Assembly (NCBI GenBank): GCA_040902005.1 | Contig: JBBDYA010000081.1 | Span: forward strand, 63,827 to 93,747 | Length of the DNA: 29,921 nucleotides | Origin: Gemmatimonadaceae bacterium | GTDB taxonomy: Bacteria > Gemmatimonadota > Gemmatimonadetes > Gemmatimonadales > Gemmatimonadaceae | Reading direction: 5' to 3' | Part shown: positions 12,001 to 29,921 of the stretch, piece by piece | Layout: the number at the start of each line of letters is the position of its first letter | Numbering within the stretch: the first letter of the stretch is position 1 | Made by a program: the position numbers

Positions 12001-15000
12001 CCGGTGCGCGGCCGCGCGAAGAAATGAGCCAATGCAAAAGGAGAATGGGCTTCCCCATTCTCCTTCTTCCGCCACGCGCTCGCGGACTATCGACAGTACT
12101 GCGTAACCATCTGATCGGCGGCGGGTGAATACTGCGCCACGTAGCCGAGCACCGTCCGCGCCGTCGCCGCGTCCACCGAGCCCCCCGCCGGCATGTTCAT
12201 CTGCGTGAGCACGAACATGTCCTTCGCCTGCCGGGCCAACCCGCAATTCCTCCGCGCCTGCGCGTCCTGGAGCGACGCAATCGCGACATTCAGCGAGGTG
12301 ACGCCGATGAAGAACTTCGCCGTCGCCGACGGCGCCAGGCTGTCGGACGCCTGCGCAAATCCCAGCGCGCGGCGGTACTCCGTCACCGTCTTCACCGAGT
12401 CCGCATACTTGTACACCGCCTGCGTGGGTTGCAGCAGGAAGGTGCCCCAGGTCTGGCGATCCTCTCCCGCCGCCACGGCCCGGCGCGTCAACGCGAGCGC
12501 CGAGTCCGGCCGGTTCAGTTCCATGAAGATTGCGCCGAGCATCAACGTGCCGTTGAGCGTCCGGGGATCGATCGACAGAGCGCGCCGGATGGACTGCTCG
12601 GCCATCTGCAGCTGTCCAGCGCGACGTTCCGCCTGCGCCTTCAACGCCCAGAAGGATGCGCGCTGTGGGTATCGCTGCGTGGCGCGCGACGTGATCTCCA
12701 CCGCGCGCAGTGGATTCTCCGTGACGCCCTGCGCGGCGGCAATCTGGCGCTCGAAGTACGCCGTATCGGCCAGCGTCGAGTCGCCGCGCACCATGGCCAT
12801 CCCCGCTGCGACGGCCTTGTCGAACCAGGCCGACCGCGATGACGGCACGGTATCCGCCGCGGCCGCGTTCAGCGTCAGCAGCCAGCGCTGGCGCATCAAC
12901 TGCGGGTCGCCCGGATTCTTCGCGATGAGCGAGTCCACGAGCGGAAGCGCCACTTCCGGCTTGCCCAGTTGCGCCAGCGCCGTGACCACCTGGCCCTGGA
13001 GCGTGGGGTTGTTGGGCTCGAGTTCCATCAGGGACAGGAGCGAGCGCACGGCGCTCTCATTGTCACCCTTGATCTCCTGGGCGGCGTACGCCAGCCGCAA
13101 TGCGACCGTGCTCCTGGGATCCAGCCGGCGAACCTCTCCCACGATCCGGAGCACCTCGTCCGCCGTGCGAATCCTGGTCGCGGAATCCTGGCTGGCCATC
13201 ATCGCCTGATAGGCGCTGGCCATGCAGAGGCGGGCTATCGTCGCGATGGGGTACTTCTCCACGGCCGCCCGCGCGGCTGCAATCGCCCTGTCGAACGCAC
13301 CGTCACGGATTCCGTTCTCGCACGCCTGGTTGTCGGCGAGCTGCCTGCGAGCGTCCTCGTACGCGCGTTCCACCTGACGCGCCAACGCACCGACGTTGCC
13401 GCCCTCCGCTGCCGGCAGGGCCTGGGCGATCGTGACGTCGCGCGCGAGCATCATGCGCGGCTCGATCCGGAGATTGTCCCCCCTGCGCGTCACGTGCCCG
13501 CCGATCACTTCATCGGCACGGAGCCCCTTGGCCAGCGCTTCCAGGTCGGTCATGCCGAGCGAGGAATCGGGCCGGTATCCCGACCCCTCCAGATAGGTGG
13601 TGATCTGTTCCTTGTGGATCACCGTGATCTGGCGCGGATTGATGCCGGCCAGGATGCGCGAACGGATCGCGTCCGAGACTTCGACGCCTGCCGCGCGATC
13701 GCCGCTGAACACCACGACGAGGACTCGGGGCGCCTGCGGGTTGACCGTCCGCGTTTGAGCCTCGAGGGCGGCCGGCGCGGAACACAACCCGAACGCCAGT
13801 GCGACCGCAGTCGTTGCACGTCGCTGATTCACCTTCACGATTGACCTCCAAATTCGGTAAGCAGATCTACCCGAGTGACTTGCTTCGGTTCCGGCAAAAC
13901 AGGTGTTACCAGCGCAATGAGTGGGCGAAGAGGGACTCGAACCCCCGACTTCCTGCGTGTAAGGCAGGCGCTCTAACCAACTGAGCTATTCGCCCCAGCG
14001 ACGACTCGCGGGAATCCGACACGGGACGAGAGTCGACGTGCATCAAATACGAAGCCGGAAGCACGTCAGCACGCCCGGGTTACGAGCGGAGAATCGCGAC
14101 GGGAACCAGCACGCAATAGCCAACCACAAGGAGGACCGGGGCGAGGTTCATCCCGCCCCGGGCAAGGTCCGCATATCCGATCGCCAGCGCCAGGAGCGCG
14201 AGTCCCCACCACAGAAGCGGACGCGAGCGCGGAATGGAGGTTTCGGTGTCAGCCATGAGCAGAGTAGCATATCGGCGCCGGAAAACAGTGTCAACTTCAA
14301 ATGCCGCCGCGCGTTACGATTCCATTAAGGCCGCTCCCCGGGATCATTCTCCCCGAGGAGGTCCTTGAGAGCACTTTCCCGCTCGGCGCGGTCCGCCGCT
14401 TCGTCCGCCACACGCATGCTCGCCAGCCGCCGGCGATCGCGGCGTCGGCGCGCAACGTACAGGGGTGTCAGCAGGAACAGGAAGAGCAGCGCCGCCAGCG
14501 TCACGTTGCTCGCCAGCGCCAGCGCGCCGTACTGCCGGCGCGTCTGCTGACGCCAGCGCTGCTCGAAGCCGGCGAGCGTCATTCCGTGCGCCCGGCGCAT
14601 CGCGGTGTCGAGGGAGCGGGTGTCCCTCCAGTAGCCCAGCAGCAGGGAGAGTCCGTGATCGGGACTGGCCCGCGCCAGCTCCGCGACCGCGCGATACGAG
14701 AGGGCATAGGCTGACTGCGCGGCGGTGGTGCCACCGGAGAAGGATGCTTCCAGCTCGTCCAGCGTGGGCATGCCGCGCAGCGCCAGGGCGAGGTTCGTCA
14801 TCAGCACCTCCTCGCGGCCCCATTCGCCGGCGGCGTAGCTGGCATAGCCCTCATCGAACCAGCGGGGCGGCAGGTTACCGAGATATTCGTGCAGCGCGAG
14901 GTGCGCCAGTTCGTGGCGCAGCACCGAGAGCGGATCGCCCGCGTCAGAACCCGATCGCTGGCCCTGCATCACGATGCGGCGGAACTCGGGAAACGCGACG

Positions 15001-27000: not shown

Positions 27001-29921
27001 TCTGCGGGGCGCGCTCCAGCAGTTCGCGGTAGAGCTCCAGGGTGGCCGCGGTATCGCGGCCGAGCAGGTGCACCTCCGCCATCGCCTGCTGAACGAGATC
27101 GCGATCTTCGCCGCGCTGCAGCGCCAGGCGGTATTCGCGGAGCGCTTCCGCGTGGTATCCCTTTTTCCGGAAGGCGAGCCCCAGGTTGTAGTGCGTGAGC
27201 GCGGCCTCGGGCGCGACCTCCATGGGCGCGGCGCGCGCGGACTCACGCTCTGCCTTCTCGACGTAGCGGTTCGCGTTGAGCGCGAGGTTGGCCTGCGCGC
27301 GGGACAGCGACGGATTCAGCTTCACCGCGCGCTTCGTGGCGTCCTTCGCCTCGTCGTGCCGGCCGGCGTCGCCCAGCACGAAGCCCAACAGATACCAGGC
27401 CTCGTGATTCTCGCCATTCAGCGCGATCGCGCGCTGGAGCAGCGCCAGCGCCTCGTCGTTGAGACCGCGGTTGTAGGCGATCTCGCCAAGATAAAAATGC
27501 ACGAGCGAGCTGTCCGGATCCGCTGCGCGCGCCTGCTCCAGCCACCGCTGCGCCACCTCGATGTCACCGATCGCCTTCTCGGACAGGCCGATCTGAATGA
27601 GCGCGCCCAGGTCGGACGGATGGTACTTGAGCAGCTCGGTGAACTCGTTCACCGCCTCGAGATGCTGCCCCAGCAGCGCGTACGTGCGGCCAAGCTCCCA
27701 GCGCGCGTCGCGGTCGCTGGGGTTCGACCGCAGATGCTCCACGAGGCTCGAGATCCGCCGGTTCGAGTACCCGCTGTTGACATACGCGATCTCGATATTG
27801 CGCTGCGCCACCTCCATCCGCGGGTCGAGCTCCAGCGCGCGCATGAAGGCGACCACCGCGTCCTCGTACAACCCCTTGTTGAAATACAGGACGCCGAGAT
27901 TGTTGTGCGCCCCGGCGTCGGAGGGATCGATGCGGCGCGCAAACGAACGCAGGGCCGCCTGATCCTTCGCGGACGCGAGCGACTGTTTGCCGCCGGTCGG
28001 CACCTCCGGCACCCCCGCGGAGCCGGCCGAGCCGGCTGGCTCCCGGGCCTTGGGCTCGGTGATCTCGCGGTCTGACGCGCCGCTCCCCCCGGGCGTCGAG
28101 TCCGGTGCGGAAAGCGTGGGAGACGCGCGCGTGATCAGGACACCCCCGAGTGGTTACGCCACGCGAACCGCCCGCAGGATCGCGGACAGCGACGGTGGGT
28201 CCGGCAACAGGAGAAAGAATCCGCGCAACGGCTGCTCCGTTCCCTTCACGAAGAACTCGCTCTCGACGCAGAAGACGAAATCGCGGTCGGAACCGAACTG
28301 GAGATATGCAGTGGTCAGCACGGCACTCGACATGTCCACGGCGAGGCTCGGCGGCGAGGGCAGCAGCAGCATCCCCATGAAATCGCTCAGTGCGTTCATG
28401 TACGCGCTGCTCAGGATGTTGCCGGCCTCCTTGATCGCCGACTGCTCCAACTCACCCAGCTCCGTCGAACTGGCGGCCGGGCGCCGCAGCAGGAGCTCGG
28501 CAAGCCGGATCGCCACGTCCCGCGGGAACACCAGGAGCGTGCGCCCGGTCAGGTCGCCCAGCATGTGCAGGAGGACGGCGGCCACCGGCTCCTCGGGGGC
28601 CGCTACCACCGGCGGTACATCCTCGAGGCGCGTGACGTTGATGCGCGGCACGCTGATCATGATCGTGGAGCCGATCATCTGGGACAGCGCGGTCGCGGCA
28701 TGCCCCGCGCCGATGTTCGCGACCTCCCGGAGCGCATCCAGCTGTTTCGGATTGAGAGAGCGAATGTCGTCCATGGGCGTCAGGAAAGGCCACCAACATC
28801 CAGTATCAGCGCGGGCGCGCCGTCAGTGAGTATGGTTGCCCCGCTGAAACATCGCAGCCCGTCGCGCAGCTGATCCATCCGTTTCACGACGATGTCCTGC
28901 TGCCCGACGAGGTCGTCCACCACCAGCGCGGCGCGCTTGTCCGCCACCTCGAACACCACCGCCTGTTCCAGTTGATCGGGCGCGACGGCGGGCAGTCGCA
29001 CGACATCCCGCAACCGGATCAGCGGCAGCACGTCCTCGCGCAGCATCAACACCTCGCGTCCCCGCAGCAGGGACACGTTTTCGGGAAGCAGCTCCACCGT
29101 CTCGCGCACGTGCGTCGTGGGAATCGCGTACTGCTCGGCGTCCACGCACGCCAGGATGGCACGCACGATGGCGAGCGTCAGGGGCAGCCGGAGCGTGACG
29201 GTCGTGCCGCGCCCGGCCACGCTCCGCACGTCCACGCTGCCGCCCAACTGGCGCGCGCGCGCGAGGACGGCGTCGATTCCCACCCCGCGCCCCGACAGGT
29301 CCGTGACCCGGTCCGCCGTCGAGAATCCGGGACGCGCGATCAGGCGCAGCAGGTCGTCGTCCGAGAGCTCGCCGTGCGATGCCTCGAGCAGCCCGGTCTC
29401 CCGCGCCCGCGCGGCCACCCGGTCGCGGTCGATCCCCCGGCCGTCGTCGCTCACGCGGATCGCCACGGCGTTCCGGTCGCGTGTGGCGGACAGCAACAGG
29501 CGCCCCGCGGCTGGCTTGCCGCCCGCCACGCGCTCGACCGGCGACTCGATGCCGTGATCCACCGCGTTCCGCAGCAGGTGGACGATCGGGTCGCCGATCT
29601 CGTCGAGCATGGACCGGTCGAGCTCGATCCCCTTTCCCTCGATCGTGAATTCGACCTGCTTGTCGAGTCCGCGCGCGGCGTCGCGCACCAGGCGCGGAAA
29701 GCGATCGAAGACCTGTCCCACCGGCACCATGCGACTCGTCACGATCTCGTCCCGGAGTTCCCCGATGAGCCGCGACGCCTGCGCCACGGCGTCGGTGAGC
29801 GCCTCGCTGCCCGCCACGCTCACCAGCTCCTGCAGGCGGGCACGCGAGATCACCAGCTCGCCCACGAGATTCATGAGTGTATCCAGCCGCCGCGCGTCGA
29901 TCCGGATGCTCCGGGGGGGGG

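Follow-up and report, generated by a model that had tools for sequence, protein, structure and literature searches.

A tandem DnaA domain III protein paired with a PATAN–TPR protein in a Che/MglA gene cluster of Gemmatimonadota

Introduction

The described DnaA-related domain III proteins that we found, Hda, HdaA, and HdaB, all act on replication initiation, and they consist of a DnaA-related module without a DNA-binding domain but with a conserved arginine-finger face. Among polarity systems, that of Myxococcus xanthus, with MglA/MglB and SgmX, FrzS, and SopA, combines an MglA-type GTPase, Roadblock and large TPR proteins, a chemosensory system, and TPR regions that serve small partners as docking sites; the available sections of its description mention no DnaA-like component (PMC11580455). 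Cyanobacterial PatA-type regulators carry a PATAN (DUF4388) domain with a helical insertion and act downstream of chemosensory systems, and the accessible part of one study reports that PATAN binds PilB1 and PilC (10.1101/2021.06.11.447907). MglA–PATAN neighborhoods, and Group 1 MglA in Gemmatimonadetes, have been noted in a paper whose main text, in the portion available, mentions neither DnaA nor TPR (PMC4316618).

Here we analyze a window of 29,921 nucleotides, the whole stretch studied, from a Gemmatimonadaceae bacterium. It encodes a protein with two DnaA domain III modules, which a first-pass annotation had read as an initiator ATPase recruited as an ATP-driven switch or scaffold of a chemosensory–MglA module. 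Unlike in the systems described in those sources, PATAN, MshEN-type motifs, and TPRs are here joined in one protein, the Che genes include CheC and CheD, and PATAN is fused to TPRs instead of a receiver domain and paired with a DnaA-derived putative docking protein. Our literature search found no description of a twin DnaA-domain-III/PATAN–TPR module.

Results

The twin protein is encoded by an open frame of 647 aa (20131–22074, minus strand; GC3 0.90) that is supported by profile matches and an AF2 model. Pfam finds two Bac_DnaA (PF00308) stretches in it, with genome-level scores of 198.7 and 188.4 bits, and no match to DnaA_N or Bac_DnaA_C: the AAA+ module begins at aa 4, leaving no domain I, and with a 40-aa tail as the only sequence after the second module, the domain IV helix-turn-helix for DnaA boxes is absent as well. 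The architecture proposed earlier is therefore correct, and so is the placement of the true DnaA on another contig, C120, as the sole other PF00308 match of the genome is a 461-aa DnaA that occupies the position upstream of a dnaN-like gene (identity judged from translation). Identity to this DnaA is 42.5% for one half and 42.1% for the other, and 36.5% between the halves. Compared with 22 sampled DnaAs of the phylum, both halves branch off outside that set. Each half resembles solved DnaA domain III (B. subtilis 8BV3/8BTG, T. maritima 2Z4R, A. aeolicus 2HCB/3R8F) in fold, Walker A/B motifs, and arginine finger at 37 to 44% identity, the B. subtilis domain giving 44% and an rmsd of 1.6 Å, whereas the two modules per chain, the extra linker, motif 1, and the tail set the twin protein apart. 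It also scores far higher as DnaA than as Hda (522 bits with TIGR00362, 170 bits with TIGR03420) and stays below the Hda family cut-offs (TIGR03420 170.1 vs. 194.8; NF005982 75.9 vs. 268); it further differs from Hda in its tandem form, its tie to a TPR signaling gene, and a dispensable ATPase.

Between the modules lie motif 1, an acidic amphipathic helix (aa 260–277, consensus EFxxFLxDV; 21244–21297, minus strand) that has low pLDDT in the AF2 model of the twin protein alone, and a helical-bundle linker domain (aa 279–368; 20971–21240, minus strand) that has a pLDDT of 91.1 when modeled alone, no Pfam match, and only generic bundles as structural matches (best Z 6.1). A candidate C-terminal docking tail (aa 622–647, consensus EKxVWxWP...RxIEExR) lies at 20134–20211 (minus strand). 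For the whole protein, mean pLDDT is 90.6 and pTM 0.55, and the arrangement of the two halves is not confident.

Pfam and NCBIfam bear out the reported Che, MglA, Roadblock, and DUF4388 neighbors, all on the minus strand. From the window end, these are the C-terminal part of CheA (28780–29874), whose gene is cut by a 10-N assembly gap with cheY just beyond it and outside the window; CheC (28154–28774); a 905-aa TPR protein (25295–28012); a second DUF4388 (PATAN) protein (24326–25291); a TPR protein with a weak C-terminal Roadblock domain (23503–24333; E 0.004); a Roadblock/LC7 protein (23159–23506; Robl_LC7 E 4e-7); a Roadblock/MglB-like protein (22692–23162; Robl_LC7 E 6e-4, below the cut-off); and an MglA-type small GTPase (22083–22682), which has a Roadblock gene next to it, as in an MglA/MglB polarity module. 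A second MglA paralogue lies elsewhere in the genome. The twin gene is followed by a 540-aa PATAN(DUF4388)–MshEN-like–TPR protein (18509–20131), the start of which overlaps its stop by 1 nt, and then by CheR (17673–18512), CheD (17173–17676), CheB (16122–17183), a 286-aa TPR protein found by profile match (15269–16129), and a Peptidase MA-like (HExxH) protein (14325–15362). Here the block ends, and not at 12087 as first drawn: a tRNA-Val (13921–13995) and a 486-nt gap part it from the TPR gene at 12087–13838.

Gene losses separate the constant from the variable members of this block. In a first sample of 108 Gemmatimonadales genomes, the PATAN–TPR protein was present in 104, accompanied by both AAA+ halves in 97, by the N-half only in 1, and by a mini-protein in 6; the remaining 4 gave no match for the paralogue, PATAN–TPR, or cluster-type mglA. 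The mini-proteins, 60 to 73 aa long, contain neither ATPase yet retain motif 1 and the C-terminal tail. A second set comprised 80 loci, and all 31 of its AAA-less loci had a mini ORF ending at most 1 nt from the PATAN–TPR start, with motif 1 present in 30 and the 31st cut by a contig end. The minis have two independent origins on the PATAN–TPR tree, where 34 of 35 form one clade of kin that are not independent. Those of genomes G068 and G070 differ by seven synonymous and no nonsynonymous codon changes; judged from their sequences, the mini-proteins are still under purifying selection. As the ATPase has been lost entirely at least twice, it is not the essential part of the family; the C-half alone is missing from seven genomes.

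The twin-family gene and PATAN–TPR also stay paired where cheR/D/B are absent from the locus (G095, G033, and G103) and where mglA is (G048, G068, G070, and G112). In other classes, f11 and f12, the second DnaA-like gene, in all four genomes having one, encodes a single AAA+ module with the tail and overlaps a TPR-only orthologue; the retrieved DNA of these four genomes gave no match to mglA or PATAN. At least one family member is labeled as another phylum (P0293). The constant partner of the twin-family protein is thus PATAN–TPR, whereas MglA and the Che proteins are each absent from some loci; the proposed recruitment of a duplicated domain III outside initiation, as part of this module, is supported with that change of partner. 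A direct effector or regulator of MglA (a GEF/GAP cofactor), with PATAN–TPR secondary, would suit the 8 nt between mglA and the twin gene, a distance similar in most loci, and a motif 1 free of an assigned partner; with both motifs persisting in the four genomes where only the other MglA paralogue was matched, and with deep single-AAA forms lacking an mglA match in the retrieved DNA, we consider this improbable.

The two halves are conserved in complementary ways. Across 69 aligned sequences, the N-half (aa 4–231; 21382–22065, minus strand) keeps its ATP pocket (K157 67/69, D214 68/69, D215 67/69, D248 64/69, R313 65/69), and among the residues for ssDNA and the DnaA-trio, scored as N187, I190, I193, R202, K222, and E228 (PMC10721633), I190 is replaced, by His in 38/69, and N187 is mostly Glu. 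The C-half (aa 376–607; 20254–20949, minus strand) keeps the arginine-finger face (R264 60/69, R260 59/69, R202 60/69, R206 54/69, E228 62/69), with relaxed ATP-sensing residues (D248 24/69, F218 8/69, R313 48/69). The earlier statement that all motifs are kept in both halves is accurate for the window's protein but not for the family, where the C-half sensor I Asp is found in 24/69. Of the trio positions, the C-half has I/V190 in 54/69; K222 and T225 are each kept in 34/69 and N187 is mostly Asp/Glu, compared with N187, K222, and T225 in 22/22 true DnaAs. The C-half of the window's protein keeps I190, K222, T225, E228, and H231, residues for which an adaptor would have no use.

With several of its residues for ssDNA and the filament retained, the C-half may link the twin protein to DnaA. 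As a replication regulator, it would apply its arginine-finger face to ATP-DnaA (Hda-like or as a filament cap) or bind origin ssDNA, while the tail tethers it to PATAN–TPR so that polarity or c-di-GMP state controls initiation. The retained R202, R206, E228, R260, R264, and L269 speak for this, as do six deep members, which largely keep the residues named above for the C-half of the window's protein (I190, T225, and H231 6/6; K222 5/6), a genome without a separate Hda-type PF00308 match, the adjoining mraW and cell-division genes, and the precedent of domain-III-related HdaB, which acts on RIDA according to the part of PMC7049699 available. We nevertheless judge it fairly unlikely given the mini-proteins, the C-half losses, the family-wide decay of K222, T225, and N187, the position of both halves outside the phylum's sampled DnaAs, the absence of a DnaA box from the window, and the lack of the terminal sliding-clamp-binding motif of Hda/HdaA, seen in 0/75 members within the first or last 15 residues. 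A bridging version, in which a polar, c-di-GMP-sensing PATAN–TPR protein holds the tail while the C-half sits on the ATP-DnaA filament or origin ssDNA, would let a Ras-like GTPase and a chemosensory pathway directly gate initiation, the mini lineages having cut the link and kept the docking peptide; this we find distinctly unlikely.

For the pairing itself, we predicted the complex of the G068 mini-protein with the G068 PATAN–TPR protein, relatives of the window's pair. The score was 0.81, and 0.12 for the best of three controls; among solved complexes 116 of 157 come up to the score mark, and among mismatched pairs 2 of 215, although with our own alignments both counts apply only roughly. The pass may partly reflect likeness, because solved structures include many peptides bound in TPR grooves. 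Runs agreed in at least 85% of contacts, with a partner pLDDT of at least 71; tail residues 33–60 of the mini touch TPR residues 232–414, and motif 1 is not among the confident contacts. The corresponding predicted groove in the window spans aa 285–465 (18737–19279, minus strand), and its residues R296, N323, Y394, N427, N428, N462, and D465 are kept in 3/3 deep TPR-only proteins at 24 to 29% identity. Polar interface columns are more conserved (0.68 vs. 0.54, P = 0.011), whereas the interface columns together are not clearly so (0.63 vs. 0.58, P = 0.09).

Less can be drawn from gene order than previously assumed: according to the accessible part of PMC11237797, Gemmatimonadota possess a terminus region in which gene order is conserved and strand use is biased. 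On this contig, 41 of 43 long high-GC3 ORFs lie on the minus strand, which deprives the co-direction of the block of its value as a special signal, and rluD/lspA and mraW border the block in most loci. The twin gene could then be a passenger frozen in place and the minis remnants that only couple PATAN–TPR translation: the last codons of the tail also contain the next gene's purine-rich start signal, the first terminal Glu is GAG in 39/39 (1603/2018 elsewhere), and the Glu–Glu conservation is partly due to that signal. Motif 1 and the stretch of the tail that contains the Trp, however, lie upstream of the signal, and both are conserved, unlike the variable spacer. With the synonymous-only changes of the minis, the TPR pairing that persists in a different neighborhood beside dapF, and the passed complex prediction, this explanation is scarcely probable at all.

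The PATAN domain contains two inserted MshEN-type 24-residue motifs (aa 57–110; 19802–19963, minus strand). Measured against the published c-di-GMP motif, two copies of RLGxx(L/V/I)(L/V/I)xxG(L/V/I)(L/V/I)xxxxLxxxLxxQ with a 5-residue spacer (PMC5013675), the first fits with conservative changes, the second has Glu for Gly, and the spacer is 6. Pfam MshEN gave no match in this protein, and at least one near-full motif per protein was found in 32 of 45 long rows of the PATAN–TPR alignment. Genome G000 has eight GGDEF matches.

In G000 (93% complete) fliG (FliG_C) was not found; fliG was unmatched in 23 of 39 module-bearing genomes and FliG_C in 31 of 48 genomes overall, in a search that matched 4 of 14 controls. 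MCPs were matched in 38 of the 39 and pilM in all 39, but pilM does not single out pili, because 7 of 9 genomes without the module gave a match as well. With CheA, CheY, and CheC in the cluster and no fliG match in G000, motif 1 might be a receptor for CheY~P that relays the Che signal to PATAN–TPR, given what we take to be its likeness to a FliM/CheZ-type CheY-binding helix; it also looks degenerate in several members carrying long low-complexity inserts. Two genomes, G110 and G151, keep motif 1 without a cluster-type CheY (best 44% and 33%, vs. ~80% for orthologues) and without a CheC match, one of these searches lacking a positive control genome, which makes such a receptor very improbable.

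Discussion

We lean slightly toward the twin protein being a nucleotide-modulated adaptor, not an initiator, that docks on a PATAN–TPR protein with a c-di-GMP-binding-type motif and probably controls type IV pili. Its C-terminal tail would lie in the TPR groove of the cotranslated PATAN–TPR protein, as predicted by modeling and backed by the gene losses, and the conserved motif 1 may make a further short contact, probably with that protein too. The N-half would bind ATP, with an arginine finger supplied by the C-half of the same chain or of another molecule; this putative composite site is proposed from residue conservation, as AF2 does not place the halves confidently relative to each other. 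The nucleotide state might then alter the oligomer or the exposure of the two motifs, an optional layer, as some lineages retain the motifs alone. By analogy, the PATAN–TPR protein would combine the adaptor input with c-di-GMP, through its MshEN-type motif, and with MglA/Che inputs, and would use PATAN to act on a polar machine, for which the type IV pilus motor is the likeliest candidate.

A DnaA module appears to have been re-used in signaling across an abundant, barely studied phylum, and the natural deletion series of twin, single, and peptide forms points to the motifs that carry function and to a docking site of 26 residues. As sources name twin-family proteins chromosomal replication initiators, dnaA counts are inflated. 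For non-flagellated Gemmatimonadota, the module offers a candidate route by which Che, MglA, and c-di-GMP signals may reach a polar machine.

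The Twin Gene and Its Locus

The twin gene is real and conserved. Its frame (20131–22074, minus strand) encodes 647 aa with two Bac_DnaA stretches, and a profile search with Pfam and NCBIfam gave no match in it to DnaA domain I or domain IV. PF00308 matches three times genome-wide, in both halves of the twin and in the full DnaA on contig C120, whose downstream gene reads as dnaN; the first-pass annotation, which had described two copies of DnaA domain III without domains I and IV and placed the true DnaA on C120, was confirmed with corrections. Each half is 42% identical to the C120 DnaA, and the two halves are 36.5% identical to each other. 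The AF2 model shows both domain III modules and, besides them, a helical linker (aa 279–368), a low-confidence helix at 263–276, and 30 low-confidence residues at the end, the pTM of 0.55 leaving the arrangement of the modules unfixed; DnaA made up all of the top ten Foldseek matches. The twin differs from DnaA in having neither domain I nor IV and from Hda in scoring below the family cut-offs and having no clamp-like end motif, and it is almost certainly a paralogue rather than an initiator.

From the 905-aa TPR gene through the peptidase-like gene, neighbors overlap or are spaced by at most 9 nt, and the stop of the twin overlaps the start of the 540-aa DUF4388-TPR gene (PATAN-TPR, 18509–20131, minus strand), its partner. 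ORFs of 838 and 699 aa in the initial listing were rejected as upstream extensions in non-coding frames. Promoter and terminator scans of the window gave matches no better than chance, and this level applies to the lone sigma-70-like site (14294–14266) upstream of a tRNA-Val(TAC) gene (13921–13995, minus strand) that separates the peptidase-like gene from a 583-aa TPR gene. A YegS/diacylglycerol-kinase-like gene (11053–12027, plus strand), one of just two long ORFs that the contig carries on the plus strand, lies between a TPR gene and mraW.

The module had been proposed from conserved gene order. Genes rluD/lspA and mraW border the block in most relatives, and gene order by itself is weak evidence at this locus: 41 of the 43 long high-GC3 ORFs of the contig share the minus strand, and PMC11237797 describes for the phylum a terminus region with conserved order and strand bias, cell-division clusters included. 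We therefore examined losses instead.

Distribution and Natural Deletions

The sample covered 151 genomes from the phylum with a completeness of 90% or more, including that of the window, and 108 of them belong to the order Gemmatimonadales; forms were called by the best E-value against the twin plus fetched loci. The partner was matched in 109 of the 151 genomes and, within the order, in 104 of 108. Both halves were found in 97 genomes of the order (interrupted by a stop in one and by contig ends in two), the N-half only in 1, and a mini-protein in 6; in the other 4 (G039, G081, G085, and G087), neither the paralogue nor PATAN-TPR nor cluster-type mglA was matched. Elsewhere in the class, the partner occurred in 5 of 28 genomes, with the twin alongside in three and an N-half form in two. 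No conclusion rests on the unpublished genomes G053 (tallies only) and G093 (one of the three twins outside the order and one alignment row). One full twin carries the source label Ca. Cloacimonetes, a search with one mini-protein as query found two proteins, and a metagenome scan with P0022 gave 18 loci, mostly ordinary DnaA, none of which has two P-loops within a single frame. At one locus (L049, genome G123), both twin and PATAN-TPR are split although the genome is a single contig, from sequencing error or decay.

In six genomes (G032, G043, G048, G068, G070, and G110), the gene is reduced to 60–73 aa and holds nothing beyond motif 1 (an acidic amphipathic helix, aa 260–277 of the twin) and the C-terminal tail (aa 622–647). 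Five of these mini-proteins abut the start of PATAN-TPR, and that of G110 ends ∼105 nt away. The G110 interval (L036:8985–9092) contains about six tandem 15-nt repeats, each opening with TAGATG or GATG, a pattern suggestive of duplication of the stop/start junction. A second set consisted of 80 further loci that were best matches to the mini-type partner and hence enriched for minis: AAA+ sequence upstream was absent in 31 and present in 48, one locus having no upstream DNA. All 31 AAA-less loci have a mini ORF ending at most 1 nt from the partner start. In a FastTree phylogeny built from 100 partner proteins (excluding L041, L049, L065, L107, L112, and truncated sequences), a 34-member mini clade is recovered (support 1.0) and G110 stands apart, as sister to the N-half-only G080 (0.9); minis therefore have two origins. 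The minis of G068 and G070 differ by seven synonymous and no nonsynonymous codons. The large mini clade has lost the MshEN-type insertion of the partner (present in 0/31 AAA-less vs. 46/48 AAA-bearing loci) as well as the last TPRs; in G110, the last TPRs are the sole loss.

Other genes of the cluster are dispensed with as well: mglA is missing from the locus in G048, G068, G070, and G112, cheR/D/B in G095, G033, and G103, and cheA/C/Y in G110 and G112. In G033 and G103 (loci L045 and L046), where twin and PATAN-TPR are intact, the cluster MglA is down to 34% identity and the 905-aa TPR gene matches at its end only. In two other classes (f11 and f12), the second DnaA-like gene is a single module plus tail in all four genomes having one, and it overlaps a 300–320-aa TPR-only gene near dapF that aligns with the TPR part of the partner. 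Together with the deletions, these pairs therefore define tail plus TPR as the smallest shared unit. A few kilobases downstream of one such pair (L204, genome G006) lie a GGDEF-receiver gene, a CheR-TPR gene, and two CheW genes.

Predicted Tail–TPR Complex

Binding of the tail to its TPR partner is quite probable. The predicted complex of the G068 mini with its own PATAN-TPR (input alignments of 48 and 86 rows) scored 0.81, the best control 0.12; 116 of 157 solved complexes attain this mark, as do 2 of 215 mismatched pairs, though such counts apply only roughly to self-made alignments. Runs share at least 85% of contacts with a partner pLDDT of at least 71, and the tail is predicted to lie along TPR residues 232–414, motif 1 being absent from the confident contacts. 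The model supports tail–TPR binding without showing it, and peptide–TPR is a familiar type among solved complexes. Groove residues R296, N323, Y394, N427, N428, N462, and D465 (numbering of the window's partner) recur in each of the three deep TPR-only proteins that were aligned. Among polar TPR columns, conservation is higher at the interface than elsewhere (0.68 vs. 0.54, P = 0.011), the difference over all columns being small (0.63 vs. 0.58, P = 0.09).

An EEVD-like TPR ligand was considered for the acidic end of the tail and rejected, as the terminal acidic pair overlaps the start signal of the next gene and predicted contacts center instead on the Val/Trp and Arg-Ile positions. The terminal Glu codon is GAG in 39/39 cases vs. 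1,603/2,018 elsewhere, and the last Glu pair is in part an effect of that start signal.

Motif 1 as a CheY-binding helix was likewise discarded: G110 and G151 keep it yet have no cluster-type CheY and no match to CheC, one of the two scans having run without a positive control genome. For the linker, a PDB sequence search (best E 0.054) and Foldseek gave no match, structure comparison gave generic bundles only (best Z 6.1), and Atlas gave no feature matches; the closest Atlas model, of a hypothetical protein from Thermoplasmatota (TM 0.55), is a weak lead. In five genomes, the second mglA has an in-frame TGA; selenocysteine was considered for it and rejected, the codon being a normal stop in all three readable loci. 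This second MglA has a ∼33-aa insertion near its C terminus in 4/4 Gemmatimonadales loci read (L058–L061) and in 0/3 from other orders.

The ATPase Halves

The roles assigned to N187, I190, I193, R202, K222, E228, and R264 of domain III follow PMC10721633; the other positions are taken in their usual roles in DnaA. With B. subtilis numbering taken from alignment to 8BTG, counts over 69 family members, unweighted, differ between the halves. The N-half keeps K157 in 67, D214 in 68, D215 in 67, D248 in 64, R313 in 65, and F218 in 48 members, with R206 in only 6 and His at the I190 position in 38; the C-half keeps R264 in 60, R260 in 59, R202 in 60, R206 in 54, E228 in 62, and L269 in 59, with D248 in only 24, F218 in 8, and R313 in 48. 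All 22 true DnaAs have K157, N187, K222, T225, E228, H231, D248, R260, R264, and R313, and the seven single-module forms have the Walker A Lys in 7/7 and the sensor I Asp in 2/7. The pattern is consistent with one main site, composed of the N-half pocket and the C-half finger. I190, K222, T225, E228, and H231 are present in the C-half of the window protein, the set being near-complete in six deep members, and their retention speaks against a pure adaptor. A direct link of the twin to DnaA is rather unlikely.

In a FastTree tree of 90 domains, the C-halves form one clade (0.87) and the N-halves with the singles another (0.82), both outside the phylum's 22 DnaAs (0.88), which, at moderate support, suggests an old duplication and repeated loss of the C-half. 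The tree groups with the twin halves two proteins of 1,876 and 1,990 aa (P0046 and P0055), in which an N-terminal MshEN domain is followed by two DnaA domain III copies flanking a long helical region, another architecture that links twin DnaA modules with c-di-GMP-type sensing. P0067 and P0136 have two domain III copies without linker or tail, the end of P0067 reading as domain IV, and are possibly independent duplications or assembly artefacts.

Output and Place of the Family

Output genes were surveyed in 48 genomes, 39 with the module and 9 without. FliG_C had no match in the window's genome or in 23 of the 39. PilM matched in 39/39, yet also in 7/9 module-free genomes, and MCP in 38/39 vs. 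2/9. The window's genome has nine T2SSE-family ATPase and eight GGDEF matches. A cyanobacterial PATAN binds PilB1 and PilC (10.1101/2021.06.11.447907), M. xanthus MglA works on pili via the TPR protein SgmX (PMC11580455), and the MshEN motif (PMC5013675) is one that the first repeat of the partner's insertion matches. The output of the module would thus be pilus control, a plausible analogy rather than a result, with the balance about even.

MglA–PATAN neighborhoods and DnaA-related regulators are already known (PMC4316618 and PMC7049699, respectively), and the text covered of PMC9862903 mentions neither dnaA nor mglA. A literature search found no description of the twin protein, subscription papers and the supplements of PMC11237797, PMC4316618, and PMC9862903, which may list the genes, lying outside it; the family is apparently undescribed so far. 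For the whole mechanism, pilus output included, the chances are at best slightly better than even. On this reading, the twin would serve an MglA-type module as an accessory protein that docks on TPRs.
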